Assembly: GCA_021108315.1 (NCBI GenBank)
Contig: JAIORE010000354.1
Coordinates: forward strand, 27,919-91,918
Origin: Candidatus Cloacimonadota bacterium
Lineage (GTDB): Bacteria > Cloacimonadota > Cloacimonadia > Cloacimonadales > TCS61
Direction of reading: 5' to 3'
Length of the DNA: 64,000 bases
Part shown: positions 9,383 through 37,818 of the stretch, piece by piece
How the letters are laid out: each line of letters starts with the position of its first letter
Position numbering within the stretch: position 1 is the first letter of the stretch
The notes under the pieces: generated by a model
Seen by the model: the letters and a program-made list of their open reading frames with translations, nothing else
Told to the model about the DNA's origin: nothing
Databases searched by the model: none
Program-made: the position numbers and the translations under genes

Positions 9383-12300
9383 CTATTTAGTGTCAACCGT
9401 ATGAAGAATTCTATATAATTGAGTTCGGCTGATATTTGCTTGTTTACTTGCCTGTAAAATGTTTCCTTTGTGTGACTTTACCAATTGTTTAGCAAAATTT
9501 CTATCTAATGTACTGATTATTCTGTTTTTATATTTCTGATATTCTTTCCAATTTCCGGGTAATTCATCCATAATGGAAAAACTGCTATCTTCTACAATTT
9601 CTTTTATTATATCAACATCTATTTGATCTGTTTTGCAGAGAAGAACAGCTTTTTCAATCTCATTTTCCAGTTCCCTGACATTACCTTTCCATTCATTATT
9701 CTTTAGATTGTGTAAAGCTTTCAAAGAAACTCCCTGAATATTTTTATTAAATTTATTGTTAAATTTTTCTATAAAATGATGGATCAATAAAGGTATATCA
9801 GATTTCCGTTCGCTCAGATTTGGAATATCTATTTTAATGACTTTGAGTCTGTAATAAAGATCTTCTCTAAATTCTTTTACTAATATTTTTTCCTCTAAAT
9901 CTGAATTTGTAGCAGTTATTACTCGAATAGAAACCGGAATTTCGTTAGAGTTTCCAACAGGAATAACAATTCTTTCCTGTAAAACTCTGAGCAGTTTTGC
10001 TTGCAGTGTCATTGGCATATCTCCAATTTCATCTAAAAAAAGTGTACCATTATTTGCTAATTCGATTTTTCCACGTTTATTAGCAAAAGCTCCCGTAAAA
10101 GCACCTTTGGTATGTCCAAATAATTCACTTTCCAATAAGTTTTCGGGAATCGCAGCACAATTAACGGCTACAAAAGGAGCATTTTTAGCATATTCCCGAT
10201 GTAATGCTTTCGCTATCAATTCTTTTCCGCTTCCGGTAGGTCCGGTAATCAAAACATTAACATTATGTTCACCAACCATTTTCATAAGTGAAAAAATTTC
10301 CATTATCTGAGGGCTTTTACCAATGATTTCCGAAAATTCATTTTTAACCCCGGAATACTGCAAAATTTCTGATTCTCGCTTTAAATTCTCAAACAAAAGG
10401 GATTTCCCCAAAGCAGAACAGGCTTGCACAAAGATAGCTTCCAAAATACTCTTTTCTTCTTTTTCAAACTCCTTATCTCCTTTAGCATCAGAATATATTA
10501 CACCTTTGATTTCGTGATTAATAATTAGCGGATAACAAACAGCAGTTCGTAATCCCAGCCCTAAAATACTGGAATGAATATCAAATTGTACATCCTCTTG
10601 TAGATTCGTCAAAAAGCGGATTTGTCCAAGTTGAATGGTTTCTTTCAAAATAGTTTTACTAACTTTCAAATCTGTTATATCAAGCTCATTATCATTACCA
10701 TAAAATCCTTGTTTTGCTTGTAAATTTCCATTTTGAAACTCAAAAAAAACAGCTCGCTCCAAACCACTTATTTTCAAAATACCTTGCAAAACAGCTTTCA
10801 TTGTTTTTTCAAATTCCACATCACCGTGAATTAGATTTATTATTTCCCAGAATATTGGAAGTGCTGAGTGCATAGTAGGATTATGATTTTTTTTAAATAG
10901 AAGCATTTCTAAAGGCTTATATGAATTCAATTGTAAATAATTTTTTATCTCGTTGCTAAGTTCTTCATATTTAAGGAAATATCCGCTGTAAACTATTTGA
11001 GTAGCATAATATAGATATTTATCTACATCTCCTTCAATAGCCAATTCCCGGAGATAATTGATCATATTTTTTTTATCAGCTGTAAAAATTGCTTTAATAA
11101 TCGGATATTTTTTTTGAATTTTGTGATAATATTGAGTACATTTAAGAAATTCAGCTCGATGATAATAATAGAAAAACATCTCAATTTGAAGTTCATCATC
11201 CTCAATTTGGGAGTAATTTTTTTCTATTTCGTCGGCATATTCACTTGAATTCAATTGGTCTGTGAATTTGCTAATATAAAGAAATTTCACTAATATATCA
11301 ATGTATCTTTGGATATTTTGTTTAATATCCTTAGTGTTTGAAACTTCTAAAATCATCTCTGGCAAATTCTCAATATTTCCTAAGGCAAAATTGGCATAAA
11401 TAATTGAAAGATCAGCAACTACTTGAATACTTAATTTTTTATATTTTCTACCGAGTTCCAAGGTATTTTTGGCAAAATGCAAGCATTTTTTCCATTCTCC
11501 GACTTGTTTAAATATTTCTGTAAGATTCAGATAAGAAAGTGTTATATATTGAGCTTTATTATTTTCATTAGAAAGTTTTAGTAACTGTTTAAATGTTTCT
11601 TTGGCATCTTTATATTTTTTTATCAGGAAATAGGACGCTCCAATATTATTTAAAGTTCTGAGATATTCATTGATTTTGTTATTTTTATGGAAAATTTCAG
11701 CAGTTTCTTTATGAATCTCAATTGCTTCAAGATATTTTTGTTGTTCGTGCAAAACGGTCGCTTTATCAGAAAGAACTGTGGCAAGCTCAATTCCAGATAA
11801 TTTCTGTTCGATACTTTCATAAAGTTCTACAGATTTTTGAAGAAAGAGACATTTTCGATATAAAAAGGCTTTTCTTTTCTGCAAGTTAATCGGTAAATCT
11901 TTAATTCTATGCCTATTTTGAATCCATTCAAATATCTCTAAAGCTGAAGAATAATATTCTTTTTCAATAAGTTCAAAGGTATGTAGGTTAAAATGTTTCA
12001 AAGCTTTTATTTGATTGGTAAGTAGAAATTCTATTTGAGTAGAAATTAGATTAAGATTTAATTTTTGAGTTTTCTGAAGTGCTCTTTGCATAAGTTTCTG
12101 AGGAACTTTTTGAGTCTTAGTTTTTTTACCTGTAAATATCAAAGAATTTCCTTGAATCGAAATTAGTTTTGAATTGATAGCTTTTTGAAACAATTGCTGC
12201 CAATTTTCCCACATCTCAACGATCAAGGTGAAGGGAACTTGCAATTCGACCAGAGCAAGAAATTCAACAAGCTCATTTTGGCTGTCTTCCTCTTTCTGTT

Positions 12301-12673
12301 GAAAATCCTTAACGATGAACTGTTTAACATATTCTTTTACTAAAAAAGGTTTAGCTTCATTGAATCTATTTTTAATATCAGTTTTTATAGTCTTTTCAAT
12401 CTCTATCTTTTCCAGAAACTCAAGAAAATCTTTATTTGTAACATTGGATATGTCACTATTATCGGTTTGGTAGATAACATAAGAATTTTGAAGTTCGCTC
12501 AGTTCATTGAAAAGGGAAGTTGCGTGATATTTAGACGATCTTTTTAACATAAGATTAACGTCTTTTGAAATAATTTTTTTAAAATTTTTTGATGATTTTA
12601 TCGGTTTATCAAAAATCAGAGATACATCTCTAAAAAATTGTTCAGGATCGAGAATAAAAACCGATTCATCCAA
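9383..12673 (-). CDS. Sigma-54-dependent transcriptional activator (bEBP) with a long TPR-like N-terminal region and a GAF domain; no receiver domain
   Basis: The AAA+ sigma-54 interaction module has Walker A GPTGSGKE, ESELFGHTKGAFTGA (GAFTGA loop) and LFLDEIGDM. The C-terminal Fis-type HTH is GNILQASKQANISRTQLYRILH. A GAF-like segment (...RAVFFEF...TAVCYPLIINHEIKGVIYSD) precedes the AAA+ core, and ~600 aa of helical TPR-like repeats come before that. The TTG start lies 2 nt after the kinase stop. Confidence 0.9.
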   Translation of the reverse strand: MDESVFILDPEQFFRDVSLIFDKPIKSSKNFKKIISKDVNLMLKRSSKYHATSLFNELSELQNSYVIYQTDNSDISNVTNKDFLEFLEKIEIEKTIKTDIKNRFNEAKPFLVKEYVKQFIVKDFQQKEEDSQNELVEFLALVELQVPFTLIVEMWENWQQLFQKAINSKLISIQGNSLIFTGKKTKTQKVPQKLMQRALQKTQKLNLNLISTQIEFLLTNQIKALKHFNLHTFELIEKEYYSSALEIFEWIQNRHRIKDLPINLQKRKAFLYRKCLFLQKSVELYESIEQKLSGIELATVLSDKATVLHEQQKYLEAIEIHKETAEIFHKNNKINEYLRTLNNIGASYFLIKKYKDAKETFKQLLKLSNENNKAQYITLSYLNLTEIFKQVGEWKKCLHFAKNTLELGRKYKKLSIQVVADLSIIYANFALGNIENLPEMILEVSNTKDIKQNIQRYIDILVKFLYISKFTDQLNSSEYADEIEKNYSQIEDDELQIEMFFYYYHRAEFLKCTQYYHKIQKKYPIIKAIFTADKKNMINYLRELAIEGDVDKYLYYATQIVYSGYFLKYEELSNEIKNYLQLNSYKPLEMLLFKKNHNPTMHSALPIFWEIINLIHGDVEFEKTMKAVLQGILKISGLERAVFFEFQNGNLQAKQGFYGNDNELDITDLKVSKTILKETIQLGQIRFLTNLQEDVQFDIHSSILGLGLRTAVCYPLIINHEIKGVIYSDAKGDKEFEKEEKSILEAIFVQACSALGKSLLFENLKRESEILQYSGVKNEFSEIIGKSPQIMEIFSLMKMVGEHNVNVLITGPTGSGKELIAKALHREYAKNAPFVAVNCAAIPENLLESELFGHTKGAFTGAFANKRGKIELANNGTLFLDEIGDMPMTLQAKLLRVLQERIVIPVGNSNEIPVSIRVITATNSDLEEKILVKEFREDLYYRLKVIKIDIPNLSERKSDIPLLIHHFIEKFNNKFNKNIQGVSLKALHNLKNNEWKGNVRELENEIEKAVLLCKTDQIDVDIIKEIVEDSSFSIMDELPGNWKEYQKYKNRIISTLDRNFAKQLVKSHKGNILQASKQANISRTQLYRILHTVDTK

Positions 12674-12675
12674 AA

Positions 12676-13551
12676 TTATGAGTTTTTTAGAGAAGTCAAT
12701 TGGAGGATTTTATCAATTTCATCATAAGCTTCATAATTAAGGATTTTTTTTCTCCAAAGTTGTTCAATCGCTTCAAAATGTGTATTGAAAATATGATTGC
12801 TTACGACAAATTCATTAATATTCCCGATATTGAAATTATATAAATCAGAAAAATATTTTGCGATTTGAAGTGCTGACGGACGCTCACTTGCATCAAAAGC
12901 CAACATCTGTTTTAGAAAACTATCCTCTGTAAAATTTACTAAGCAATCATTCCATTTCTTTTGATTTTTGATTATTTCTAAATATTCGCTAACATTGTGA
13001 TCATCTGCCGGAATTTTACCATTTAGCATTTTTAATAATATCATCCCAATTGCAAAAACATCACTTGCTTCGTGATTTGTTTTCCGTAAAATCTTTTCTG
13101 GAGCAGCATAAGAGACGGTTCCTCTAAAATATTTATCATTATAAAGATTCAATGTAGATAAACCCAGATCAAGAATGACCGGTTCATCGTTTCTTAAAAT
13201 GATATTAGCTGGCTTTAGGTCATTCAAGCAAATTCCCAGAGAATGTATTTTTGCAACTGAAAACGACAACTTGGTAATGATACTATGAATCTTTTTTAGA
13301 TTGGATTCCTGAAATTTGTCTAAACCGATTCCATCAATGAATTCTAACCGTAAGTTTAGCTTTTCCTCTTCATTAAAAGATATAGCTTTCACTACATTAG
13401 CATCATCAATAGCATTTAGAAAGAGATATTCCCGTCTGGCTTCGTGAATGAAACCGCTCTTAAATTCTTTTTGAACAAATTGCTTCCCATTATCTTCTTG
13501 AATCAAATAAACTTCCGAGAATTTACCTTCTCCAATTTTTTTCTTGATCAT
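12676..13551 (-). CDS. Hanks-type Ser/Thr protein kinase, catalytic domain only
   Basis: Gly-loop IGEGKFSEV, Lys in FVQKEFK, catalytic loop LNDLKPANIIL, DLG (the DFG equivalent), SYAAPE (APE). 291 aa with no sensor or TM domain. Confidence 0.8.
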   Translation of the reverse strand: MIKKKIGEGKFSEVYLIQEDNGKQFVQKEFKSGFIHEARREYLFLNAIDDANVVKAISFNEEEKLNLRLEFIDGIGLDKFQESNLKKIHSIITKLSFSVAKIHSLGICLNDLKPANIILRNDEPVILDLGLSTLNLYNDKYFRGTVSYAAPEKILRKTNHEASDVFAIGMILLKMLNGKIPADDHNVSEYLEIIKNQKKWNDCLVNFTEDSFLKQMLAFDASERPSALQIAKYFSDLYNFNIGNINEFVVSNHIFNTHFEAIEQLWRKKILNYEAYDEIDKILQLTSLKNS

Positions 13552-13653
13552 ATTATTTCCCCATATATGTTACAATGTTATTAATTTGTTACAATGCAAT
13601 AAATGAACCAATTTTCTTAAAAAATGAAACCACTAATTAACACTAATTATCAC

Positions 13654-13702
13654 GAAAAAAAAGCAAAAAAAAATACCTTTGTGAAATATTCCACAAAGGT
13701 AT
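13654..13702 (-). terminator. Strong rho-independent terminator (minus strand) upstream of the kinase operon
   Basis: An 11-bp stem ATACCTTTGTG (13673-13683) pairs with CACAAAGGTAT (13692-13702). On the minus-strand RNA it is followed by U9-GC-U8 (plus-strand A-runs 13654-13672). It insulates the kinase/EBP operon from the upstream cassette array. Confidence 0.7.
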
Positions 13703-13943
13703 CAGATATGTAATATATTTTTCTTGTTTTTTGGAGTAAACCAAACTGTGTTGGTTTTTTAGTAACAGAGTCACTTTCAAAAGAAGATTGTAAAATCGCG
13801 ACTTGAGATAAAAGGCAAACTCCAAAACAAAAAAAACAATTTGTAGACTTGGGAAGACTATTTGAAGTAGTTAGCAGAGGATTTACAAAGAAAATATTGT
13901 TAAAATTAATAAATGTATTGATTGCTGATTAATAGATGCTTTC

Positions 13944-14041
13944 AATTCTTTAAAATACTCAAGTCGCACTCACTCTGTTCGTAACAACTCAAGTATTTTA
14001 ATCATAGCTTATCATTTAATCAAGAAAATCAAGGTTCAGAC
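13944..14041. repeat. Right half of a CTGAAC/TGATT-family MITE
   Basis: Near-identical to 17136-17233 (AATTCTTTAAAATACTCAAGTCGCACTCACTCTGTTCGTAACAACTC...AATCAAGAAAATCAAGGTTCAGAC). No matching left terminus lies upstream. Confidence 0.6.
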
Positions 14042-14246
14042 TTTTCTCTTTCTTCACTTCATTATTGGATGTTCCGTGTTGGATATTGGATATTTATTTA
14101 ATTCTTCGTTAATTTCAACCATTGAAAAGGCTAAGATGAAAGAAATCCGCTAGCAGAAGCCATTTTCAAGGTTTTCCATTCTTCCGTTTTATTATCGCAA
14201 ACTGAACTCCACCCAAAAAGATGGATGAAGTCCAGTCTGCTTTTTC
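14042..14246 (-). repeat. Conserved ~200-bp structured element directly 3' of a surface-protein gene (copy A)
   Basis: Collinear with 25789-26033 apart from a 33-nt hairpin insert in that copy. The hairpin at 14197-14240 is fully paired only on the minus-strand RNA, where four plus-strand A:C mismatches become G:U pairs. There is a second bulged hairpin near 14119-14175. No ORF. Confidence 0.55.
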
Positions 14247-14337
14247 CTATTTCCTATTTCCTTTCTTTCCTGATCTTCCAATTACTCCAGTATTGGCAGT
14301 CACATAATAGAATCTATTCCCAACTGGAATTGTTTCA
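14247..14337 (-). pseudogene. 3' fragment of the IS-disrupted 118-aa 'mini' surface-protein paralog
   Basis: The minus strand encodes ...ETIPVGNRFYYVTANTGVIGRSGKKGNRK* (stop at 14247-14249). This is the same C-terminal tail as the giant proteins (IPATNKFYYVTANTG..., IPATNKFYYVSANTGVIGRSGKKRNRK). Confidence 0.85.
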
Positions 14338-16311
14338 CCTAAGTTTTCCACGCAAAAAAATACTCAATCTGCAACTCTTTTGTTATCAATGAGTTGCAGA
14401 TTTTTTTTAGAATTTTAGTGTAAGGTGAAAGATAATGGCTTGACATACATAATATAAAAGGATATATGGTATAGTGTAAAGTATATTAAGAATCAAAGGA
14501 GTTCGAATGAAAGAGAAAATTTATCCCAAAAACAATAATGGAAATATTTATTACTATTTTCAGCATTCTTATCGAGTTAAAATCAATCCAAAAGACAAAG
14601 GAAAAACTAAAGGAAGTGGAAAAAGTAAAGTAAAAACCAAAACGACTTATCTCGGTTCCGCTACTTCAATTCATCAAAAGCTCATTGAAGCACGCAAACC
14701 GATTGAAATTCATCATCAGGATTTTGGATTTGTAGGAGCAATTTATAATGTTGCTAAGGAAATCGGATTAATAGAGATATTACAAATGCATATTAAAGGG
14801 GAGAGATTTGGTATTCCGAATTGGAAATATTTTTTACTTGCAATCATTAACAGACTCCATCAGGCTTCTAGCAAGGAAAAGATGGGTGCTTGGGCATCAA
14901 AAACAGTATTACCGGAATTGATAGACTTTGATGCAACAAAGTTAAACAGCAAAAGTTTTTGGTATTCAACAGATGACATAATCAATGAAAAAGATTTGAA
15001 AGAGCGTCGCACCGCTAATCCATCTTTAAATGATACGATCTGCACAGGGATTAATGATGCTATCTTGAAGGAGATAGAAAAAAAGTTAATTGCGAATTTG
15101 GAAGAAAAATATGGGATATTTTCTGATGTAATCTTTTATGACACAACCAATTTTTTCACTTACTTCGAAGAACCTCTTCGCTCCCAATTAGCCCGAACAG
15201 GTCACAATAAAGCATCAAAACATCATCTAAAGCAGATAGGATTGGCAATGTGCGTAGACAGAAAGTGGGGAATTCCACTTTATCATCAAATCTATCGGGG
15301 CAATAGCCATGATTCAAAAACATTTACTGAAATAATTTCCGAGCTGATTCAACAGATGAAAGCAGGAAAACAAAATATTGAGAACCTGATTCTAATCTTG
15401 GATAAAGGCAATAATAATAAAGAAAATTTCATGAAATTAAAAGAAAATATGGAGTTTATTGGAAGCTTAGTTGTTTCTAATTACCCCGAATTGATAGAAT
15501 TGCCTTTAGAAAAATATCAAGGAAAGTATCTAAATTTCAACTACTATTCACTTAAACAGAAAGTGTTTGATATTGATGTCAAACTTGTTCTAACTTATAC
15601 TGATAAGCTTGCCCGAAAACAAAAGCATTCATTATATAGAGGGATTGAAAAATTAAAAAGAAAAATTGAGACGAAATGGTTTCAGTATAAAAAACAACCC
15701 AAAAGAGTACCAAAGGGGATAAAAAATATTTTATCAGACAGCCATTATGGGAAATACTTAAAAGTTCAGTGTCGAAAGGGAAATCCAAAATTTTCATTAA
15801 AAGATGATGCTATCACAAAAAAGGAAAAAGTTTTTGGGAAAATTCTTCTTTTTAGCAGTAATCTTGATATGGAAAGTAGCAACATAATTGAGCAATACCA
15901 TTCCAAAGATAAAGTTGAAAAAGGTTTCAAATCGCTAAAAGACCCAGATTTAATACGCTGGCAACCAATCAGACATTGGACAGATACAAAAATCAGAGCT
16001 TTTGCTTTTTGTTGTGTTATGAGTTTGATTTTGATTAGAGTTATGGAATTAAAAATAAGCAAGGCAAATCTGAAAATGAGCCATTCGGTTTTAAAAATGG
16101 AGTTAAATGATTTGAAAAAGATTATTATGATTTACAATAAAAATGAAGCAGCTATTGAAATTTCGCATCAAAGTACAGTACAAAAAAAGCTGTGGGAAAT
16201 CTTTCAATTGAATACCTTAAAAAATGACTTAACCATACACTAAGACCAAACGTTTCTCTTTACGTTAAAGAAACTTAGCAAAGGGGATATAACATAGATT
16301 GAAAACTTAGG
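14338..16311 (+). mobile_element. IS element (IS1634/IS4-like), 1974 bp, 11-bp perfect TIRs, 5-bp target duplication
   Basis: IRL is CCTAAGTTTTC (14338-14348) and IRR is GAAAACTTAGG (16301-16311). The direct repeat TTTCA flanks both ends (14333-14337 and 16312-16316). Removing the IS and one TTTCA restores an in-frame 119-codon ORF. A terminator-like hairpin lies inside the left end: CTGCAACTC (14369-14377) pairs with GAGTTGCAG (14391-14399), followed by a T-run. Confidence 0.9.
14507..16243 (+). CDS. DDE transposase, IS1634/IS4-family-like
   Basis: 578 aa, the only ORF inside the TIR-bounded element, with AAGGAG 8 nt upstream of the ATG. The N-terminal ...NGNIYYYFQHSYRVK...TTYLGSA and C-terminal ...KVEKGFKSLKD...IRHWTDTKIRAFAFCCVMSLIL blocks resemble IS1634-type transposases. 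Element size and the 5-bp duplication fit that family. Confidence 0.75.
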   Translation: MKEKIYPKNNNGNIYYYFQHSYRVKINPKDKGKTKGSGKSKVKTKTTYLGSATSIHQKLIEARKPIEIHHQDFGFVGAIYNVAKEIGLIEILQMHIKGERFGIPNWKYFLLAIINRLHQASSKEKMGAWASKTVLPELIDFDATKLNSKSFWYSTDDIINEKDLKERRTANPSLNDTICTGINDAILKEIEKKLIANLEEKYGIFSDVIFYDTTNFFTYFEEPLRSQLARTGHNKASKHHLKQIGLAMCVDRKWGIPLYHQIYRGNSHDSKTFTEIISELIQQMKAGKQNIENLILILDKGNNNKENFMKLKENMEFIGSLVVSNYPELIELPLEKYQGKYLNFNYYSLKQKVFDIDVKLVLTYTDKLARKQKHSLYRGIEKLKRKIETKWFQYKKQPKRVPKGIKNILSDSHYGKYLKVQCRKGNPKFSLKDDAITKKEKVFGKILLFSSNLDMESSNIIEQYHSKDKVEKGFKSLKDPDLIRWQPIRHWTDTKIRAFAFCCVMSLILIRVMELKISKANLKMSHSVLKMELNDLKKIIMIYNKNEAAIEISHQSTVQKKLWEIFQLNTLKNDLTIH

Positions 16312-16582
16312 TTTCATTCCAAGTTAAACCGGAAATATTTTCTTGTTGCAATATCCAACCTCCTTCTGGATCATCAGAAGAATATACTTTATAAGAATCT
16401 GCTCCGGTAAAAGCATCCCAAGTTAAAACTACATCTTCCGAAGCAGTGGGAACAGTACCTCGAGACCAATTGGCTGTCGTGTTCCAATTCCAACTGGAAC
16501 TACCATCCCAGGTATTTGTTACTGCAAAGATCGAGATTGCAGTAAGACACATTACGAGAACTAACATTGTTTTCTTGTTCAT
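16312..16582 (-). pseudogene. 5' fragment of the IS-disrupted 'mini' surface-protein paralog
   Basis: The ATG at 16582 follows GAGGAGG. It encodes MNKKTMLVLVMCLTAISIFA (signal peptide), then TWDGSSSWNWNTTANWSRGTVPTASEDVV, then LTWDAFTGADSYKVYSSDDPEGGWILQQENISGLTWNE. The apparent stop at 16307-16309 is IS sequence. Confidence 0.85.
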
Positions 16583-16951
16583 TTTTTCCTCCTCGTTTGG
16601 TTTAATAAACTTTTTTTTAACCACGAATTTTCACTAATTAAGACGAATTAAAACGAATTTTCTAAGATTTTACAATAAATGAAATTAAATAAATTGGAAA
16701 TATTTTGTCTACTTTTTTTATTAATTGAATTTAGTTCTTGTTGGAGTAGGATGTCATTTCCGGTGGTAGCAATCGGTCTTCAGTGGGCTGAGATAGCATT
16801 GTTTTTTAACTCTCTTAATCCCATCCCCGACCCTTCCCCTTCGTAAAGGGAAGGGAGTTAGTTCTCCCGTGCACTTATGTTAAGAAGTAAAACTTATAAT
16901 AAATTTAAGATTATACTTAAACATAAGTGCAGAGGAATTAGAGGGGGCTCT

Positions 16952-17011
16952 CTTCCTGCTTTTCTCATGTTCCTTCTCTTGAATTTAAGAGAAGGATATC
17001 AGGATGAGTTC
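16952..17011. repeat. 60-bp hairpin repeat (CCTTCTCTT...AAGAGAAGG core)
   Basis: CTTCCTGCTTTTCTCATGTTCCTTCTCTTGAATTTAAGAGAAGGATATCAGGATGAGTTC. A reverse-complement copy with few substitutions lies at 44739-44798. Confidence 0.6.
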
Positions 17012-17050: not shown

Positions 17051-17233
17051 TTTGAACTCTGATTTATTTGATTCCTAAGATTACTTTGATTTCTGCATTC
17101 CCAATATCCCGAATATTTTCGGGAGAAACGAGCTGAATTCTTTAAAATACTCAAGTCGCACTCACTCTGTTCGTAACAACTCGAGTATCTTAATCATAGC
17201 CTATCATTGAATCAAGAAAATCAAGGTTCAGAC
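17051..17233. repeat. MITE-like element, CTGAAC/TGATT-iteron family, full copy (183 bp)
   Basis: The left end is TTTGAACTCTGATTTATTTGATT...GATT...TGATTT and the right end is AATCAAGAAAATCAAGGTTCAGAC. It ends 13 nt from the stop codon of the 2559-aa gene. Confidence 0.6.
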
Positions 17234-17246
17234 TTCTTCCTATCTC

Positions 17247-25788: not shown

Positions 25789-26033
25789 TCTCTCTTTCTT
25801 CACTTCATTATTGGATGTTCCGGGTTGGATATTGCCTGCCCCGTAAGGAACTTGCGACTGTTCGGGGGATATTCATTTAACTCTTCGTTAGTTTCAACCA
25901 TTGAAAAGGCTAAGATGAAAGAAATCCGCTAGCAGAAGCCATTTTCAAGGTTTCCGGTTTTTCTGTTTTATTGTCACATTCTGAACTCCACCCCGAAAAG
26001 ATGGGTGAAGTCCAGTCTGCTTTTTCATATTTC
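25789..26033 (-). repeat. Conserved structured element directly 3' of the 3681-aa gene (copy C)
   Basis: Collinear with 14042-14246. It has an extra hairpin insert at ~25835-25867 (CCCCG...CGGGG). The stop-proximal hairpin at 25981-26015 again needs G:U pairs that exist only in the minus-strand RNA. One A:C position of copy A is a C:G pair here. Confidence 0.55.
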
Positions 26034-32000: not shown

Positions 32001-35000
32001 TTCATCATCAAATATCCTCATTGCAGTATCATTCTGTAAAGTCAGATTATTATCCACATCAAGAGTAGAATTCTCGCGAAGCAACAATTTCCCATCATTA
32101 ATGAAAAAATCATTTTCAACGTGAACTGTCTTTCCGGCTACAATGTCTGAGTAACTCAAACTTCCGGTTGTTTTTTGCAGAGTCAAATTATAAAATGTTT
32201 CATCTGATAAAATATCTGATTCATTCCCACCGAAAAACTTAACAGTTCCGCTTTCTTCATAGAAACCTGCTGTTCCACGCAAATTTTCCCAATCTCCGGC
32301 AACTAAGATCAAACCGGAATCAGAATCCAAACAACCATCTGTACCAATAGAAACATCATTATTTACGGTAAGATTATTGGAACTTGTCCGCAAAACGCCA
32401 TCAAGTAAAGTCAGGTTATTATTGATTACACAACTATTGGTTAATGTTATGGAACCCGGAGTTCCTGTTTTATTGATAATAACATTATTAAACCAATTAT
32501 TATTTGCGAGATAAATTGTAGCACTGCGAGTTCCAATAAATTCTATCGTTCCGGTATCTTGTTGGAAAACATCAACACTTAAAGCTCGAAGCCCCCAGCC
32601 GATTTTAATCGTTCCACCAAGTTGCTGGAAATTTGATGCGGCACCGAACTGAATTCCATTATAGGTTATTTGAAAACTACCGTCATTAATAATGGTCGTT
32701 CCCGAAAATGATTTATGACTTCCTTCATACGGAGTATCAATTATAAAGTTTCCGTTATTTATAACCAATTCGCCTGTAGAATACTGACCGAAATCATCCG
32801 CAATAGCGAGATTACCACCATTCATGGTAACTTTTCCATGTATAAAAAGATCTTCCGTGGTAACTTCGGCATCAGCATCAATAATTAGTTCAGCATCAGC
32901 ATAAATACTTATCCTTCCGGAAATATCAAGTTCATTTTCGTTTACATCAAAAATACTATTGGGATTAATCAGTAAATCTCCGGTTACGGTGACAGATTGG
33001 TCACCGTAATCACTAATTTCACAGTAATAATCGTCTTTATCTATTGAAATAGTTCCAAAGCTTGCTGTAGCAGAATATGAAAATATTCTTGATCGATTGC
33101 TTCCTTCAAAGAATACAGTATTGTCAGTACTAAACTCACAATTGCATCCATTGGAGAAAAGCCAGTCTCTTTTTGTATGAATTTCTCCATTTGTTATATT
33201 TGCAGTAGAATTCAGTTGCCAGTAAAAATAATTATTTACTGTAAGCTTATCATCAGGATCAGTCATTGATAAAGTGCCGAATACTTCCACATCGCCACCA
33301 ACATTGATCGTATTGCCATTCATAGTAAATGTCCCATCCTGAATAATAAGATCACCAGCCAAATTAAGATCTAAAGTTGAAAGTACATTTGCATTACCTG
33401 TTTTATTGATAATAATATTTCCAAAATCATTTCCTGCGTGACAAGTAATCGAGGACACGTTTGACCCATATAATTCAAAAGTAACATTTTCAGGAGAAAA
33501 ATCGTTTCTCTCACACAAAATATTTCCGATAGTGCGAATTCTCCCTCCATTGATATTTTCTGTAAATTGGTGGATAGATGAATTAACAATTCTAATTCCA
33601 TTATCTTTAAAATCCAGAATACCTCCGCTCATGTCAATCCTGGCATTCCCATATTGGGGCCAATAGCTATCGCGGGTACCTCCATAAATGTTAAAAATCC
33701 CACCTTGAATGGTCAGTTCACAAAATAAATCAATACATGCCCCTGTTCCCTGATGGAAATTTAATTCACCGTCCATAACATAAATTCTGCCTTCAATTCC
33801 ATTAGCAACTATATCATTAGCTGTAAATGTTCCACCATCGATGTATAATGCTCCGTCAATCCAATCGTAACTCTCGCAAGTGGTAATACCTGAAGGAAAT
33901 TGTAATACACAATAATGTCCATCAAGAACGATATTATTGAATTCTTCTCCATAGCAATATGATTGATCGTCTCCATTAAAATATACAGTGTTTGTCCCTG
34001 GGTTGAACCAGCCGGATCCTGCATTATTTTGCCAATTTCCACCAATATAGATATCATGGTTATAGGCTAACAATCCGCCGCTATTAATAGTCAAATCCCC
34101 ATGAAGATATAACTCAGTATTTAATCCAATAACTCCGGAAGTACTAATATCAAGACTATAAAAATAATCTGTAGAACTACAGCTTAAATTCGAATGTCCA
34201 CCAGTTAGTTTAAATGTTCCTGCATCAATTTCGAAATTGCCATTATTTGTGAAAGCATCTCCAATTTCTATTGTTTGATATGAGCTTGAGTGAAACATCG
34301 TTCCTGTTCCAATTGTGAGGTCTCCCAGCATAATCCAGTCCTCCGTGGAAAAAATATGATAGTCAAATACGCCCCCGTTCTTATTTATTATCACATTATA
34401 AAATGTTGTATTGGAATCATTATTAACAAGATAAGCATTCTGATTTGAGACAAAATAAACAACTCCACGATCCATTTGAACATCTGCTCCATTATAAATT
34501 GTCCAATTATTATAACATACAATCATGCCATTCATCAATTCAACATTCACAATTGACCCTTCGTGGCTGGTGATGTTCCCCTGACACTCAACAGAACTGG
34601 ATGAACTTGATAATCTTAGTTCACCAAAAATATCCAAATCTCCGTAAACGTTAAAATATTCATCTTGAACTGTTACCATTGCCCCACTTTCTATTGTTAA
34701 ATTTCCACTATATGCCGTATCATTTTGAATAACAGGATTATATGTACAACCGGATGGTATTACAAGATCATGGAAATTTTCAGGAACAGCATTATTTGAC
34801 CAATTTCCAGGTTCATGCCAATCAGTGGAAACATCTCCTTCCCACAATCCGGCAGGATAGATAGAAAGGGTAAAATCTCCGGAATATAAACCACTATTTG
34901 ACACAATACATAACCCGTAATTTCCCGCTTGAGTAGGAGAATAATGAAATGCTTCATCTGCTCCTGCACCTATATTCTCTGATGAAGCCACACTATTATT

Positions 35001-37079
35001 CTTAGTAAAATATCCGTCTCCTCCCCATTTGAATAATGCAATATCAAGATCTAAATTATTTTCGCTCGAAATCAATAATTCAAAATAATAATCATCAGGA
35101 GTTAAATGAATATCCCACATTCTCACAATATCCGTATCCCAGCTTAGATTATGAGTTGTATTAATTGTTAAAGTCTCTGGAGTACCATCAAATCCAATTC
35201 CTCCCGTATATACTTCATCATTGCAATTTACTTTAATTCCAAATTCTTCTTCTGTTGCATGATAACCATCAATGACGATATAATTTACCTGTTGCCAAAG
35301 ATGTGATTCTATGATTTCATTTGTAAAGCTCAAATCATCAAACATTTTCATATACCAAAATACAGTTGGACTATTATGTAGTGTGCCGACAATTCCCCAA
35401 GTTTGTTCAGTGTGATTTATTGAAAAAAAATCTGGTGTGGTTTCAATATATTCTGTGTTCAAACTTGAAATTTCCTGCAAACTACCGCCCGGTTGCATTT
35501 TAAAATTTCCGTAACTGCCGTCCATAGCCATTATCATATCGGTGGTGCTGCTACAAACTTCAATCTTAACACGACAGAAATCTGATTGACCCTCAGGAAA
35601 AATTGGATTATCAATTTCCGGAACTACCCAATCATAATTTCCATCATTTTCTGTGTTTTCATCAATAAGAACCCATCCGCAAAGAATGTCGTCTAAATCG
35701 CCCGATCCTTCCAATCCATACATAAAATTATAATATAGTTTGCAATATCTATCGGGTTCATCAAGATCCCCAGTCCAGGAAATTTCCCAGAAATCATTTG
35801 CTTCTAATATCTCACTACCTGAATTGGAATTGAATACGGTTCCACCATTCGGTGAGGAAATTTCTACCTCATCCCCGTAGTTATATGAAAGAGATACCCA
35901 ATAATGCCCTTCCAGCATTGATCTTGTGATTGTTCGAATGGTACTAAGATTTGGATCGTGAGTATGAACCTGTGCCGGTGAAGATATATAGCCTACTCCG
36001 ATTATCGAATGTTCATCAATGCTGATATGGCAAGGTCTTTGATTATTGATGGAGCCTTTAATCTCATCAAATAATTCTCGTACTGTCCACCACGCTGCAT
36101 AGTGTCCGTCTGAACTGCATACGTATCCTCTGTCTTCTACTGCCTCAATATATCCATCACAGATATTCCATCTTTGTGTTGATCCATCGCTATCGGTATC
36201 CATCGTCTGATGTAGACGATATTGAATCATTGGTATATGATGATCATAATGTCCAACCGGTTCCTGAATGCCATCAGTTTCCGAAAAATGGTAATCTATC
36301 AAATTGCCAAAGCCGCGATAATGATCCCACCAGGCGAGCAGCATCGCTGCTGAAGTTGGAGTACATCCATAATGCCATTCCAGAAACGGCATATATTCTT
36401 CACCCGGTATCCAAACTGTTGATCTGGACATTGTTTCTCTATTTGTGTGAAATCTCTGCCAATCTTCTTCGAAATTATCACGTTCCCAAAAGTAGTTTTT
36501 TTCATCTGCAAATCTCCAAAACTCCTCTTCCGTTTTTACTTTTACGAGCGGATCAATATTTATGTATTTTTTTATATTACTACTTGAAACACAATACCAT
36601 ACATTCACCAACCCGAAATAATAGATTTTCTCTAATTTGTATTCTCCTTTAAATTCTTTATTTGCAATTCTTTCCAACTTTTTGCCATAAGCATATTGAG
36701 GAGAAAGGCATTTTGCATATTCGATAAATACAGGCATATACGTCTTTGCACCAATTACCATGTTTGCAAATTCATCATCACCCCAACCTGATTTCCTTTC
36801 ACCATTTTTAAATGCCTGATCACATTCTTCTTTGAGATTTTCTGCATCAGGAAAATTTCCATTTAATGAATAATTAAAATGATATGCAATGATTTCATCG
36901 TCGGGTCCATAATACGGAATCGGATCTGCAGGGTAAACATCTCCCCACAAAACTTTTGCATTTCTTAAGGCAATTTCTGCAACTTCGTCCAATGGTATTT
37001 CTTTAATTTCAGCATTTAGAACTACTGATAGACTAACTAATAACACTAAATATAAAATAAACATAATTTTCTTTCTCAT
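26034..37079 (-). CDS. Giant secreted surface protein (3681 aa): papain-like (C39_2/C10-like) cysteine-peptidase head, beta-helix-like repeats, Ig-like and jelly-roll-like domains, three FN3-like YYVRAYA repeats, C-terminal FN3-like module with basic tail
   Basis: The ATG at 37079 follows AAGGAGA. Signal peptide MRKKIMFILYLVLLVSLSVVLNA. The head has WHYGCTPTSAAMLLAWW (Cys), DEHSIIGVGY (His) and HDPN. The motif GLWEGDVSTDWHEPGNWSNNAVP follows. The body is homologous to 17247-24926. There are three EGFE..FPP.GW...IDDV.I.G domains and three ...RG(V/I)CWS...YYVRAYA(T/E)N...YGN.V.F.T repeats. The C-terminus is ...LNWDEVVEADSYKVYSSDDP...KFYYVSANTGVIGRSGKKRNRK. No T9SS CTD. Confidence 0.85.
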   Translation of the reverse strand: MRKKIMFILYLVLLVSLSVVLNAEIKEIPLDEVAEIALRNAKVLWGDVYPADPIPYYGPDDEIIAYHFNYSLNGNFPDAENLKEECDQAFKNGERKSGWGDDEFANMVIGAKTYMPVFIEYAKCLSPQYAYGKKLERIANKEFKGEYKLEKIYYFGLVNVWYCVSSSNIKKYINIDPLVKVKTEEEFWRFADEKNYFWERDNFEEDWQRFHTNRETMSRSTVWIPGEEYMPFLEWHYGCTPTSAAMLLAWWDHYRGFGNLIDYHFSETDGIQEPVGHYDHHIPMIQYRLHQTMDTDSDGSTQRWNICDGYIEAVEDRGYVCSSDGHYAAWWTVRELFDEIKGSINNQRPCHISIDEHSIIGVGYISSPAQVHTHDPNLSTIRTITRSMLEGHYWVSLSYNYGDEVEISSPNGGTVFNSNSGSEILEANDFWEISWTGDLDEPDRYCKLYYNFMYGLEGSGDLDDILCGWVLIDENTENDGNYDWVVPEIDNPIFPEGQSDFCRVKIEVCSSTTDMIMAMDGSYGNFKMQPGGSLQEISSLNTEYIETTPDFFSINHTEQTWGIVGTLHNSPTVFWYMKMFDDLSFTNEIIESHLWQQVNYIVIDGYHATEEEFGIKVNCNDEVYTGGIGFDGTPETLTINTTHNLSWDTDIVRMWDIHLTPDDYYFELLISSENNLDLDIALFKWGGDGYFTKNNSVASSENIGAGADEAFHYSPTQAGNYGLCIVSNSGLYSGDFTLSIYPAGLWEGDVSTDWHEPGNWSNNAVPENFHDLVIPSGCTYNPVIQNDTAYSGNLTIESGAMVTVQDEYFNVYGDLDIFGELRLSSSSSSVECQGNITSHEGSIVNVELMNGMIVCYNNWTIYNGADVQMDRGVVYFVSNQNAYLVNNDSNTTFYNVIINKNGGVFDYHIFSTEDWIMLGDLTIGTGTMFHSSSYQTIEIGDAFTNNGNFEIDAGTFKLTGGHSNLSCSSTDYFYSLDISTSGVIGLNTELYLHGDLTINSGGLLAYNHDIYIGGNWQNNAGSGWFNPGTNTVYFNGDDQSYCYGEEFNNIVLDGHYCVLQFPSGITTCESYDWIDGALYIDGGTFTANDIVANGIEGRIYVMDGELNFHQGTGACIDLFCELTIQGGIFNIYGGTRDSYWPQYGNARIDMSGGILDFKDNGIRIVNSSIHQFTENINGGRIRTIGNILCERNDFSPENVTFELYGSNVSSITCHAGNDFGNIIINKTGNANVLSTLDLNLAGDLIIQDGTFTMNGNTINVGGDVEVFGTLSMTDPDDKLTVNNYFYWQLNSTANITNGEIHTKRDWLFSNGCNCEFSTDNTVFFEGSNRSRIFSYSATASFGTISIDKDDYYCEISDYGDQSVTVTGDLLINPNSIFDVNENELDISGRISIYADAELIIDADAEVTTEDLFIHGKVTMNGGNLAIADDFGQYSTGELVINNGNFIIDTPYEGSHKSFSGTTIINDGSFQITYNGIQFGAASNFQQLGGTIKIGWGLRALSVDVFQQDTGTIEFIGTRSATIYLANNNWFNNVIINKTGTPGSITLTNSCVINNNLTLLDGVLRTSSNNLTVNNDVSIGTDGCLDSDSGLILVAGDWENLRGTAGFYEESGTVKFFGGNESDILSDETFYNLTLQKTTGSLSYSDIVAGKTVHVENDFFINDGKLLLRENSTLDVDNNLTLQNDTAMRIFDDENSVNIYVGGHWSDNNDDNDDFTSFHPGNSTVTFDGTEEQIFSTVWSQPEFYNLIINKSSSHFIPYLNVTIGGNLSVTNGYWSDHAYGMTHNFLGDVAICEGGWSARYSTVIFSGSANATFQQAGLCMFNNIIVDKEPSGSSKNDGELTLLSGWRTIWDGDLTIQAGILNANGNETACTGNVTINNEGTLALDGGSILKVGNDKTLSVNSGGTLETIGSAGNEVNIICYAAGNYYDLDIKNNGTISAEYTIFQNMTSNGVYLWSSAIVDPVHSFHNCTFQNGVSGGSLLRVNNTADFTINNAIFPENTWGSNFNVYKHPTSTAIVEFIEATGDFAGASYEYDPSSRVTWTMGPHISVTPPSQDFGDVIVDQSGRSGFYIENDGGAILSGTITTPVGFTILGGSRDDQRESSDRNVRTYSVNAGVTNTFLLDFEPTEVQTYSGNVIITHNAGGDDETVFLTGNGIAAPPPIMEASPDTLDFGDQFVGTIDSLGISINNPGGRNLVGSISYPDGFMVTEMCYRNNSSEFENAAETIVSRDRTSISFVVSAGEFANYNVIFEPVLLQDYSDNIIITHNAAGGDVVIPCFARGVETIFTISPTTMGKTITPGQTDSELLTFGNEGNLDIDYFAYVEYSNDMNTILEEGFENNFPPTGWTLHSIGGYGDWMQNEWNYHTGNKCAEASYMFVNDARLITPFFTATENCILKYWLKADEYMSPEGSNIGEFWIEVSTDGTNWTSVKSYDQENLSNEFTLKCVSLGDYAGQNIKVAFRVYENMMGNGVYIDDVKISGDVNPLYSWLSLDNKMFVEGEIAVGASDVAIQVDYDTAGLSDDLYWAYIRTVSNDTSDPLFNIHVDLEVGVYGMSISTQLLEFGDVNVGENAVLQFTLENTGTLWIEGIITTPEGYSVEEDFPTRNSENNPEREGYSYSLLPEDIWTYNVTFEPSYYGNFDSDITISHSMGGDDELISVTGVGRAPEIMASPDFIFQEQYPDVTTSRNLTIDNTGNSNLNYIASIMYSRNRDILVSSGFEDMMFPPMDWTSQIVAGTEDWMQDGMYPNNGMYCASANGMMIEDARLITPSFIATDDCQLTYYIKTDEWAMSGGSFGVEVSSDGTNWSFIDEIDISTLTDVYSQEVLSLSAYNGNSIQVAFRMYNVPGDADFVYIDDVEITGSSAPTDQWLSLDGGETVTGTVESGRTADIINVGFDSTDLPECMYMANILIDSNDPQMPQYWVMVELNVGYPQISVYPDSIGFGAIQVGEEFTNMFAIENLGTMSLIGTITTPAGFSVSEQVYRNNNSKRVNKLSRNTLNYEIITGDMQQFDLTFAPTEAVEYSGNIVITHNAQGSDVLIETDGTGATSPTVTTNAVTNITTISATGGGNITADGGSEVYMRGICWSEMEEPTIFDYFINCGSGTGSFSGNLETLMPGMIYYVRAYAENFYGISYGNQVSFITVGPTIIVSQDSLPDFGEVSVNSVSAEQSYTVSGENLEGDIEIYAPWGFEISLTSSRQSRKINESERMPRINSSRDFGNSIILIPTTGTVPQTTIYVRFHPEMAFKHIDVITHSSMNSQGASVDVGGDGVELPDVTTDSITNIETDSATGGGEITYDGNGEITARGVCWSVSSSPTTANDHTTDGSGTGTFVSSLSSLDSGTFYYVRAYATNSVGTAYGNEVTFTTTAATPIITVSVSSLPDFGDIPINTNSSEQNYTVSGSNLTGNITIDAPTGFEISTTPTMRTNCNNLNSKTSRAFSSQVILTPTAGSVPTTTIYARFSPTTATVYSGNISHISSGAVTKNVAVSGTGITTATITTDAITAIEQTTATGGGNITANGGIAVTARGVCWSTLASPTTADDHTTDSSGTGTFTSSLTSLDPETFYYVRAYATNSVGTAYGNEVTFTTLSATPPDAPLNITITVNETQVVLNWDEVVEADSYKVYSSDDPNTPIGSWSVEQENIIETTWNELIPATNKFYYVSANTGVIGRSGKKRNRK

Positions 37080-37150
37080 AATTCTCTCCTTGTCTCGGCA
37101 TATTTTTTGAAGCCGGACGAATTTTCACATTTTACGTTTTACATTTCCCA

Positions 37151-37495
37151 TTATTTATATTGTTTTCTGAATTTTTTCTTAAGCTCTCTGAGCATCACAG
37201 GATTGTGCAAAAGTGTATAATTACCTGTTTTCATAATTGAAATTGCCTCTTCCATAGGTTTATCAGACGAGATATAGATTAAAATACTTTTGAAATTATC
37301 ATTGATATATTTAATAAAACCAATATCAGAAATTGAAGTAATATTTATTAGTACTGTAAATATGTTATTTTTTTCAATTATTTTAATTGCGTCAAGTATT
37401 GTTTTTACAAAAAATATTTTTGAATTAATATTTTTAATCATATCTTCAATCTCTAATGATTGAAATTCGTTTTGTTTTATAGCTAAGATATTCAT
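37151..37495 (-). CDS. Stand-alone pseudo-receiver, 114 aa (paralog of 24974-25306)
   Basis: The ATG at 37495 follows GAGGAG. The sequence MNILAIKQNE...TVLINITSISDIGFIKYIND...ILIYISSDKP...YTLLHNPVMLRELKK has the same Asn/Gln-for-Asp and Asn-for-Lys pattern as the paralog. Confidence 0.55.
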   Translation of the reverse strand: MNILAIKQNEFQSLEIEDMIKNINSKIFFVKTILDAIKIIEKNNIFTVLINITSISDIGFIKYINDNFKSILIYISSDKPMEEAISIMKTGNYTLLHNPVMLRELKKKFRKQYK

Positions 37496-37527: not shown

Positions 37528-37543
37528 AGCAACAACAGTGCCA
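37528..37543 (-). promoter_or_regulatory. Sigma-54 (-24/-12) promoter of the pseudo-receiver / 3681-aa gene cassette
   Basis: The minus strand reads TGGCAC-TGTTG-TTGCT-TATAA, a perfect consensus at exact spacing, ~33 nt upstream of the ATG at 37495. Confidence 0.8.
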
Positions 37544-37611: not shown

Positions 37612-37625
37612 GACCGATATCGGCT
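37612..37625 (-). promoter_or_regulatory. Candidate UAS site 1 (GACCGATATCGGCT)
   Basis: The core CCGATATCGG (37614-37623) lies ~75 bp upstream of the -24 element. This is the same position and flanking block as 25424-25437. Confidence 0.55.
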
Positions 37626-37701
37626 GAGTGAAAAGTAAAGAAAGATATTTTGTATCGTAATCGCTTTTAAAATATGGGAATTACATAATGTATAATTTTT
37701 A

Positions 37702-37734
37702 CCACCGAAATCGGACAGTAGCCGATTTCGGTGG
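37702..37734 (-). promoter_or_regulatory. Candidate UAS sites 2+3 (CCACCGAAATCGG-N7-CCGATTTCGGTGG)
   Basis: The decamers CCGAAATCGG (37705-37714) and CCGATTTCGG (37722-37731) are at the same distance from the promoter as in the other cassette. No upstream minus-strand gene needs terminating here, which argues against a purely terminator role. Confidence 0.5.
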
Positions 37735-37818
37735 GTGATTTTTTAATTTGACAGGATTTTATAATTAAAAGATTTATAATTTTGTTAAAATAGAAAAAAT
37801 AAATTAAAGGATATTGTA

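Follow-up and report, generated by a model that had tools for sequence, protein, structure and literature searches.

Putative sigma-54 operons that pair a receiver-like protein with giant exported proteins in Cloacimonadota and Bacteroidota

Anti-activators such as PspA, FleN and HrpV are expressed from the sigma-54 regulons of the activators on which they act (PspF, FleQ and HrpS, respectively). Receiver domains that have lost their phosphorylation chemistry, the pseudo-receivers, are also well known, with HP1043, ChxR, AmiR, FrzS and the N-terminal domain of KaiA being either fused to output domains or transcription factors. Two further regulators are small stand-alone proteins. CtrA induces Osp of Rhodobacter sphaeroides, a receiver-like protein that has neither the acidic pair nor the conserved Lys; Osp inhibits CckA directly, and its D51N mutant is functional (PMC9430884), while FixT of Caulobacter and Sinorhizobium inhibits FixL in a negative feedback loop (PMC7078487). 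Control of giant surface proteins by sigma-54 is on record from Flavobacterium psychrophilum, where the promoter of remFG-sprCDBF, an operon encoding the giant adhesin SprB and the PorP-like SprF, was validated by mutagenesis (PMC9723704). Here we describe a locus that recalls these systems in part. It lies on the 96,957-bp contig JAIORE010000354.1 of a Candidatus Cloacimonetes metagenome-assembled genome (MAG), within a stretch of 64,000 nucleotides that was analysed as a whole (the window, with a G+C content of about 31%), and it consists of two cassettes, A and B, in each of which palindromic dyads and a predicted sigma-54 promoter precede the genes for a small pseudo-receiver and a giant exported protein.

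The minus strand, read from 37745 down to 9383, carries cassette A, cassette B, a mini paralog of the giant genes that an insertion sequence (IS) interrupts, an intrinsic terminator and then, directly adjoining each other, the genes for a Ser/Thr kinase and a sigma-54 activator (Table 1). The order within both cassettes is a dyad pair, a single dyad, a -24/-12 promoter, a receiver-fold protein of 110-114 residues and the giant gene. An earlier note on this DNA, made from its letters, had claimed two cassettes of common architecture, with promoter, palindromes and pseudo-receiver conserved amid diverged non-coding DNA. Both claims are confirmed: the promoter and dyad motifs match only in the two cassettes within the 64 kb, and the DNA repeats between A and B comprise the pseudo-receiver gene, at 81% identity, and the dyad pair and proximal dyad, at 87% and 71%, with diverged DNA in between. 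The two pseudo-receivers are identical (100%) to the hypothetical proteins K8S23_13290 and K8S23_13280.

Table 1. Positions of the cassette elements and neighbouring features in the window.
Feature	Position	Strand	Remarks
Cassette A distal dyad pair CCGAAATCGG-N7-CCGATTTCGG	37705-37731	-	Centred near -190 and -210 relative to the inferred transcription start; CCGAWWTCGG matches at 37705 and 37722
Cassette A proximal dyad CCGATATCGG	37614-37623	-	Centre 89 nt upstream of the -12 GC; CCGAWWTCGG match at 37614
Cassette A predicted sigma-54 -24/-12 promoter TGGCACTGTTGTTGCT	37528-37543	-	
Pseudo-receiver A (114 aa, P0001)	37151-37495	-	AGGAG ribosome-binding site ahead
Giant exported protein A (3681 aa)	26034-37079	-	Signal peptide, C39-like head, repetitive body, FN3-like basic tail
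Cassette B distal dyad pair CCGAAATCGG-N7-CCGATTTCGG	25519-25545	-	Stem extended to 17 bp; CCGAWWTCGG matches at 25519 and 25536
Cassette B proximal dyad CCGATATCGG	25426-25435	-	Inside the 14-bp palindrome AGCCGATATCGGCT; centre 88 nt upstream of the -12 GC; CCGAWWTCGG match at 25426
Cassette B predicted sigma-54 -24/-12 promoter TGGCATTATTATTGCT	25341-25356	-	
Pseudo-receiver B (110 aa, P0002)	24974-25306	-	
Giant exported protein B (2559 aa)	17247-24926	-	From the ATG after a GGAGG site; head unlike that of A; body and tail homologous to A
Mini paralog, 5' part	16311-16582	-	Signal peptide, W-rich motif, start of FN3-like tail; no cassette elements upstream
IS1634-family insertion	14338-16311	+	Transposase 14507-16243; inverted repeats CTAAGTTTTC; duplication GTTTCA
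Mini paralog, 3' part	14250-14337	-	Ends ...IPVGNRFYYVTANTGVIGRSGKKGNRK*
Intrinsic terminator	13672-13703	-	Stem of 14 pairs plus T7 run; between the giant-gene array and the kinase-activator operon
Hanks-type Ser/Thr protein kinase (291 aa)	12676-13551	-	Pkinase, E 3e-33
TPR-GAF-AAA+(GAFTGA)-HTH sigma-54 activator	9383-12673	-	Open reading frame of 1096 aa; NCBI annotation 1055 aa

The promoter and dyad motifs are far from random in their distribution. The promoter motif TGGCAYNNNNNTTGCW has exactly two matches in the 64 kb, those of Table 1, where 0.09 would be expected. Its grammar is TGGCAY-N5-TTGCT, and in both cassettes the -24 GG and the -12 GC stand 10 nt apart, fitting TGGCAC-N5-TTGCW; the promoter match is followed by the start codon at 23-25 nt (32-34 nt from TGG to ATG), with an AGGAG-type ribosome-binding site before each pseudo-receiver gene. 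CCGAWWTCGG matches six times, three times per cassette and nowhere else in the window, against an expectation of 0.07, and none of 100 shuffled sequences reached six matches. In both cassettes the proximal dyad CCGATATCGG lies 91-93 bp from the nearer distal dyad, centre to centre. The gap between the proximal dyad and TGG is 70 nt in A and 69 nt in B, 69-70 nt over the four closest cassettes (window A, window B and the metagenome loci L001 and L002; L numbers denote loci from other assemblies) and 66 nt in L037. When the upstream regions of these four are aligned, the conservation falls into islands: the dyads, the -24/-12 element, the ribosome-binding site and, between dyads and promoter, a block rich in AT. 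Between the pseudo-receiver gene and its giant gene neither cassette has a terminator-like site, so co-transcription of the two is plausible. A small hairpin occurs in both cassettes between the pseudo-receiver stop codon and the ribosome-binding site of the giant gene (37095-37120 and 24939-24962, minus strand; GUCCGGC...GCCGaGAC in A, GCUUGGAC in B), with weak folding z-scores of -0.5 and -1.8.

Further -24/-12-like matches are found in intergenic DNA: TGGTATTTCAATTGCT at 6007-6022 (minus), 41 nt before the open reading frame start of the gene 3513-5966 for a type IX secretion system (T9SS) cargo protein and 53 nt before its first ATG; TGGTTCATTTATTGCA at 13595-13610 (minus), 44 nt ahead of the Ser/Thr kinase gene; and TGGCAAATTTTTTGCA at 1164-1179 (plus), about 208 nt ahead of an ABC-F gene. 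These are not significant alone, because equally good matches fall inside genes.

Pseudo-receivers A and B are 80% identical as proteins, and neither has a match in Pfam (PF00072 included, E<=0.01) or NCBIfam. An AlphaFold2 (AF2) model built from four sequences has a predicted local distance difference test score (pLDDT) of 79 and the beta-alpha pattern of a receiver. The top 50 matches listed by Foldseek against the PDB are receiver or response-regulator domains, with template modelling (TM) scores of 0.66-0.80; among those listed are the receivers of NtrC1, NtrC4, FleR and LuxO and the atypical HP1043. While a word-indexed profile search of the family returned 13 proteins only, an exhaustive one yielded 160 cluster representatives at E<=0.001 (clusters of 50% identity), nearly all of them stand-alone proteins of 100-135 residues. 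In an alignment of 128 family members with the receiver domains of neighbouring activators, the column of the acceptor Asp is a gap in all but two members (126/128), the conserved Lys is replaced in 113/128, and the positions of the acidic pair (DD) are mostly N, G, K or S. Profile-profile comparison (hhalign) with the receivers of the neighbouring activators gives a probability of 99% and an E value of 1.8e-18, with a two-residue deletion exactly at the acceptor Asp. The most conserved positions of the family are E15 in helix 1 and a KYINxN(Y/F) stretch in helix 3.

The loss of the acceptor Asp, the acidic pair and the Lys, together with the lack of a Pfam match for the window copies, leads us to call the small protein a pseudo-receiver. 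The phosphorylation-dead receiver of the earlier note is thus borne out by the fold matches, the profile comparison and the gap at the acceptor Asp: judged by sequence and model, the protein is a phosphorylation-dead receiver with a true receiver fold, and descent from an NtrC-type receiver is the best explanation of its predicted origin. No description of the family was found in full-text literature on type IX secretion, sigma-54, pseudo-receivers and Cloacimonadota. One odd relative, on the short Joint Genome Institute contig L003, joins an N-terminus resembling a signal peptide in frame to the final 50 residues of a pseudo-receiver, and is probably an assembly chimera or a decayed copy.

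The cassette grammar passes the check that the earlier note had set, recurrence in related genomes, and is present in distant ones too: it is found in L001, L002, L006, L032-35, L036, L037, L040-42 and five Marinifilum/Labilibaculum (Marinifilaceae) loci. Closest are two short metagenome contigs, L002 and L001, whose pseudo-receivers are 79% and 65% identical to A and whose layout is CCGRAATCGG-N7-CCGATTTCGG, CCGWTATCGG, a 69-nt gap, TGGCAY-N5-TTGCA, the pseudo-receiver and a gene starting with a signal peptide. The closest relative on a long contig (40 kb) is L037, with a pseudo-receiver (P0006) 41% identical to A. Upstream it encodes a 786-residue TPR histidine kinase and then a 463-residue REC-Sigma54_activat-HTH_8 activator; these are followed by CCGAAAACGG-N7-CCGTTTTCGG, by CCGAAATCGG about 100 bp on, by a 66-nt gap and TGGAAT-N5-TTGCA, and by the pseudo-receiver and a giant of 3143 residues with a Peptidase_C39_2 head (PF13529) and an FN3-like basic tail as in the window giants. 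The same order of TPR kinase, activator, dyads, promoter and pseudo-receiver is seen in L040-42 (dyads GCCCGATTCCGGGC and GCCCATATTCGGGC, TGGCAC-N5-TTGCT), ahead of a protein of about 1530 residues, and in the Cloacimonadota MAG L006 (TGCGAWWTCGCA dyads, TGGCAC-N5-ATGCA), ahead of a T9SS type-A cargo protein. The -24/-12 element is conserved in L001, L002, L037, L040, L006 and, by inspection, L036.

More distantly, the five Marinifilaceae loci carry a hybrid kinase, an activator, dyads of the TATCCG-N4-CGGATA type (core CCG-N4-CGG), a conserved TGGTAT-N5-TTGA element, which like those of L040-42 and L006 fits GG-N10-G(C/A), and the pseudo-receiver, followed by a giant of 1587-1591 residues with a CHU_C type-B T9SS domain and by a PorP/SprF-family gene; the contig of L004 ends after the pseudo-receiver. 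In L032-35 a pseudo-receiver 21% identical to A stands behind CCG-N4-CGG dyads and ahead of a homolog of giant A, the giants aligning at 25% identity over 787 residues of the head (E 1e-67) and at E 1e-102 in the body. Kinase-activator adjacency was judged only where the flanking DNA suffices: a histidine kinase and an NtrC-type REC-AAA+-HTH_8 activator are encoded directly upstream in L004-L006, L009, L011, L012, L037 and L040-42, and such a pair lies within 2.2 kb in L010, with none in L007 and L008. The pseudo-receiver thus keeps company on both sides in a tight and ancient linkage, with a kinase plus an NtrC-type activator encoded upstream of it and a large exported protein encoded downstream. 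A protein-pattern scan of metagenomes yielded 600 stretches, none of them a relative. A DNA scan with CCGWTATCGG-N69-TGGCAY-N5-TTGC gave 19 unrelated matches, mostly on GC-richer contigs and several inside coding sequence; this pattern fixed the gap at 69 nt (cassette A has 70 nt), and the source sample of L001 seemingly lies outside the collection.

Taken together, we have moderate confidence in the following explanation as a whole. RNA polymerase with sigma-54 would bind at TGGCAY-N5-TTGCT, each cassette forming one sigma-54-dependent operon, and an enhancer-binding protein would activate it from three CCG-N4-CGG dyads with an AT-rich centre, one near -100 and two more, spaced 17 bp apart, near -190 and -210. 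Three dyads would suit three activator dimers making a hexamer. The transcript would give the cytoplasmic pseudo-receiver first and then the giant, Sec-exported surface protein. The cassettes belong to a module conserved in Cloacimonadota and Bacteroidota, in which the genes for a sensor histidine kinase and an NtrC-type response-regulator activator are followed by CCG-N4-CGG sites, a -24/-12 promoter, the pseudo-receiver gene and that for a large exported protein; the activator of the window cassettes would most likely be an ortholog of this regulator encoded outside the window. The pseudo-receiver would feed back on the two-component system that induces it, as a mimic that cannot be phosphorylated and docks either on the kinase or on the activator's receiver domain, much as Osp and FixT act on their kinases. 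That the cassettes are activator-dependent sigma-54 operons we consider probable; the feedback role we put forward more tentatively, as a possibility suggested by analogy.

This explanation has precedents in part. Osp and FixT are likewise small stand-alone receiver-fold proteins whose genes are induced by the two-component systems that they modulate, and Osp resembles the present family further, by description and not by sequence comparison, in lacking the acidic pair and the Lys and in being independent of phosphorylation. Osp, however, keeps the acceptor Asp, the column deleted in nearly all members of our family. A further difference from both Osp and FixT is that here the response regulator is a sigma-54 activator and the target operon opens with the gene for the decoy, which is always accompanied by a giant exported protein; binding to the kinase is only proposed here. 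With PspA-PspF, FleN-FleQ and HrpV-HrpS the cassettes would share a small protein of a sigma-54 operon that feeds back on its enhancer-binding protein, but those proteins have unrelated folds, none being a receiver domain. HP1043 and the other pseudo-receivers named above have the same fold without phosphorylation chemistry, whereas the present family is stand-alone, about 110 residues long and tied to sigma-54 operons. NtrC, NtrC1 and DctD systems have GG-N10-GC promoters and dyads at about -100 to -210, and the activator adjacent to the cassette in our relatives is of the same REC-AAA+-HTH_8 type with a sensor kinase; the described systems have neither the CCG-N4-CGG motif nor the fixed layout of three dyads, nor do they start with an obligatory pseudo-receiver gene.

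The earlier note knew of no comparable system. For the pseudo-receiver family our literature searches agree, but sigma-54 control of a giant-adhesin operon has a precedent in remFG-sprCDBF (PMC9723704), which shares with the cassettes a -24/-12 promoter and a giant surface adhesin. The Marinifilaceae loci are analogous to it, with a type-B T9SS giant followed by PorP/SprF. On the other side, no pseudo-receiver has been reported in that operon, and the window giants lack T9SS C-terminal domains. RemF and RemG were considered as a Flavobacterium counterpart of the pseudo-receiver and rejected: RemF is annotated as an exported precursor and has been detected in cell-surface proteomes (PMC5682007). 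Each class of component is known by itself, be it sigma-54 with an NtrC-type system, a single-domain feedback protein of receiver-like build or a giant surface protein, and it is their fixed combination and the motif grammar that appear to be undescribed.

The module as a whole, from the NtrC-type two-component system through CCG-N4-CGG sites and sigma-54 promoter to decoy receiver and giant exoprotein, is covered by no curated family model, and our literature searches found no account of it. It is shared by Cloacimonadota and Bacteroidota, which are dominant in anaerobic digesters, sediments and guts and whose huge surface proteins are poorly understood, and it offers a testable hypothesis for how costly giant proteins might be switched on and restrained. 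The roughly 160 clusters of its small protein add to the short list of stand-alone pseudo-receivers, and the cultivable carriers Marinifilum and Labilibaculum make genetic testing feasible.

Which activator drives the cassettes of the window is a separate question. The earlier note had placed them under the neighbouring kinase and activator, the latter being the only sigma-54 activator in the window. The activator is indeed one: it combines TPR and GAF regions with Sigma54_activat (PF00158, E 3.5e-67) and a GAFTGA motif visible in the translation, and its last 40 residues align plausibly by hand to HTH_8 regions, PF02954 itself not being reported at E<=0.01. The intact GAFTGA is also the only thing that implies the presence of rpoN in the genome. 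The kinase is of the Hanks type and not a histidine kinase. The activators linked to cassettes in L037, L006, L005 and L010 are 47-54% identical over their full length, across Cloacimonadota and Bacteroidota. To these the window activator aligns over AAA+-HTH only, at 39-44%, which is the level of an unrelated second activator in L010; with that L010 activator it is 48% identical. It has TPR-GAF in place of REC and is not a member of the REC-AAA+-HTH_8 group (L037, L040, L006, L005 and L010; at least about 47% full-length identity). The recognition helices differ as well, ISRTQLYRIL in the window activator against ITRQSLNRRI, ITRQALDRRI and ITWQSLDRRI beside CCG-N4-CGG sites. A search with its N-terminal 770 residues returned only the query itself. 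Derivation of its TPR region from TPR sensor kinases was considered and rejected, the similarity being generic (21%, E 6e-7) and like that to an unrelated CHAT-TPR protein. The identities and the recognition helices point to an NtrC-type response regulator outside the window, and an ortholog encoded there is most likely the cognate activator.

It would nevertheless be possible to see in the adjacent Ser/Thr kinase and TPR-GAF activator a dedicated pair that binds CCGAWWTCGG, with the pseudo-receiver supplying the missing receiver in trans, possibly after Ser/Thr phosphorylation. The position of the activator speaks for this, as it lies on the same strand about 3.7 kb past the end of giant gene B, and since the activator of the relatives usually adjoins the cassette, adjacency is informative; a -24/-12-like match (TGGTTCATTTATTGCA) also precedes the kinase gene. 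Against it stand the low identity to the cassette-linked activators, no closer than for an unrelated activator, the different recognition helix (SRTQLYRIL against TRQSLNRRI and TWQSLDRRI at CCG-N4-CGG loci), the lack of any dyad near the kinase-activator operon, the strong terminator and the IS that separate this operon from the cassettes, and the absence from our search of homologs of the activator's N-terminal region. We therefore regard control by the adjacent pair, as claimed in the earlier note, as unsupported and unlikely, though not disproved. Several observations do weigh against the explanation that we prefer. The 64 kb contain no rpoN and neither a histidine kinase nor an NtrC-type activator, the latter two absences also favouring the adjacent pair. 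The Bacteroidales MAGs L007, L008 and L010 have the pseudo-receiver but no recognisable -24/-12 element or CCG-N4-CGG dyad. The distal pair forms a strong, terminator-shaped hairpin in all four close cassettes, so its conservation may be partly structural. We derive the feedback role, which may be of either sign, solely from gene order and analogy. Finally, because the only activator present in the window is non-orthologous, it may have replaced the ancestral one: in this lineage a Ser/Thr kinase and a receiver-less TPR-GAF activator would have taken the place of the histidine-kinase/NtrC pair, with the pseudo-receiver becoming a detachable activator subunit, possibly gated by Ser/Thr phosphorylation. 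We give this only a slim chance; if true, it would be a hybrid Hanks-kinase/pseudo-receiver/sigma-54 pathway for giant peptidase-headed surface proteins exported via an FN3-like tail.

The function of the pseudo-receiver and of the distal dyads can be read in other ways too. The pseudo-receiver could be an accessory to secretion or assembly of the co-encoded giant, for example by docking on the cytoplasmic part of an export machine, much as the PorX receiver domain has been proposed to dock on that of the T9SS. It always precedes a large exported protein, the pair being co-inherited down to 21% identity, and in some relatives that protein is T9SS cargo, followed in one case by a PorP/SprF gene. 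Yet the cargo types vary (T9SS type A, type B, FN3-like tail, Peptidase_S74), the window giants have no T9SS C-terminal domain, and the closest sequence relatives of the pseudo-receiver are the receiver domains of activators. As cargo and C-terminal signal vary while the kinase-activator pair and the promoter grammar stay constant, a regulatory role is favoured, and an accessory one seems rather improbable. The distal inverted repeat might, in turn, be mainly a terminator or insulator, leaving the single proximal dyad as the only activator site, which would be compatible with the explanation that we prefer. The distal pair folds as a hairpin of 13-17 bp (13 bp in A, 17 bp in B) with z-scores of -5.5 to -9.4, in three of the four close cassettes its stem is longer than the 10-mers, and an A-run ahead of it in all four makes the antisense strand resemble an intrinsic terminator; cassette B scores as a terminator on both strands and cassette A on the plus strand only, and in L037 the distal repeat lies about 30 nt past the stop codon of the upstream activator gene. 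A hairpin alone, however, would not need each arm to be a near-palindrome of the proximal-site type. L002 pairs only the 10-mers, no T-run flanks the repeat of L037 on either side, two adjacent dyads 16-18 bp apart but without strong stems are kept in L032 and the Marinifilaceae loci, and cassette A has no gene that needs termination at this point. A mainly terminating role thus seems doubtful, and we read the distal pair as two predicted activator sites with a possible secondary insulating role. Recent tandem duplication without functional signal would account for two adjacent cassettes and for the mosaic repeats flanking the giant genes, but the intergenic DNA has diverged except in discrete islands, and the same islands, alike in order and spacing, are present in independent metagenome contigs as well as in L037, at a protein identity of 41-79%. 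This already contradicts simple duplication, to which we give hardly any credence.

The control logic of the branch comprising L007, L008 and L010 may differ from that of the other relatives. A common ATGGCGTGCA motif occurs there about 100-300 nt upstream of the pseudo-receiver, with GTGAC/CGTGAC-type repeats in L007 and L010 and, in L010, arrays of GTGACACGTGAC-like repeats. In L008 the pseudo-receiver is followed by a protein of at least 2893 residues.

The earlier note described giants that share body and tail but not head, and alignment confirms this: A and B align at 39-47% from about residue 769 in A and 667 in B as far as the C-terminus, and no alignment is obtained for the heads at their N-termini. 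The note also called both giants protease-headed, which holds for one of them. Head A alone scores 29.1 bits against Peptidase_C39_2 (PF13529; gathering cut-off 24), and its motifs YGC(T/S)xTSxAM (Cys), H-x3-G-x-G (His) and DPN are invariant across the window, L037 and L032, so that the head is demonstrably peptidase-like, of the C39-like cysteine-peptidase kind, with activity predicted. Head B has no Pfam peptidase match at E<=1 and no PDB sequence match, and its single-sequence AF2 model (pLDDT 34) is unusable; a clan-CD-like His/Cys pattern is a tentative lead for it. As for the missing export tag of the earlier note, both giants start with typical Sec signal peptides, judged by inspection, but a T9SS C-terminal domain (Por_Secre_tail/TIGR04183 or CHU_C/TIGR04131) is absent from both, also when their last 99 residues are scanned at E<=1.

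The bodies of the giants contain choice-of-anchor J and D domains and Ig-like domains. Giants A and B, the mini gene and a third giant gene at 50599-62562 share an FN3-like tail with the motifs SY.VYS.D.P and KFY..TA and a short basic C-terminus, and the giants of L037 and L032 have the same ending. No Pfam or NCBIfam sorting-domain model matched this tail, which we regard as a candidate module for sorting or anchoring, different from the T9SS C-terminal domain. The third giant (plus strand, 3987 residues) has PKD, beta-helix, SBBP and Laminin_G_3 domains and is accompanied by neither a pseudo-receiver nor a sigma-54 cassette; just upstream of it lies the gene (49940-50383) for an IS200-like Y1 transposase. 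At 3513-5966 and 6708-8831 (minus) are paralogs with CarboxypepD_reg repeats and T9SS type-A C-terminal domains. Since these neighbours match Por_Secre_tail, the organism has T9SS cargo beside giants that lack that tag.

The mini gene, with its signal peptide, W-rich motif and FN3-like tail, is cut by an IS, its last 29 codons resuming at 14337-14250. The insertion noted before holds up and can be assigned to the IS1634 family: the transposase scores 261 bits against NF033559 (cut-off 100), and the ends have the inverted repeats CTAAGTTTTC/GAAAACTTAG and a 6-bp target duplication, GTTTCA. The strong terminator described after the array is present as well (Table 1). The mini gene is not, however, a degenerate third cassette as had been supposed. 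No third pseudo-receiver was found by tblastn, and the mini gene has neither a dyad nor a -24/-12 match ahead of it; it is therefore a truncated structural paralog of the giant genes.

The giant genes have 3' flanks composed, in mosaic fashion, of common non-coding modules, 89-94% identical over repeat segments (25781-26042 and 14035-14262; 17136-17245 and 13944-14053), one of them with a 10-bp inverted repeat. Rfam at gathering thresholds has no match in the window, these modules included. A 61-nt segment in a GC-richer, hairpin-prone intergenic stretch has inverted repeat copies at 16951-17011 and 44739-44799 (93% identical) and may be an element of the miniature inverted-repeat transposable element (MITE) kind. 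Between 40813 and 48514 (plus), genes for a TPR-CHAT protein, a CHASE2 adenylate/guanylate cyclase and a Schlafen/AlbA_2-HATPase_c_4 protein are clustered, and may form a signalling or conflict system unrelated to the cassettes.

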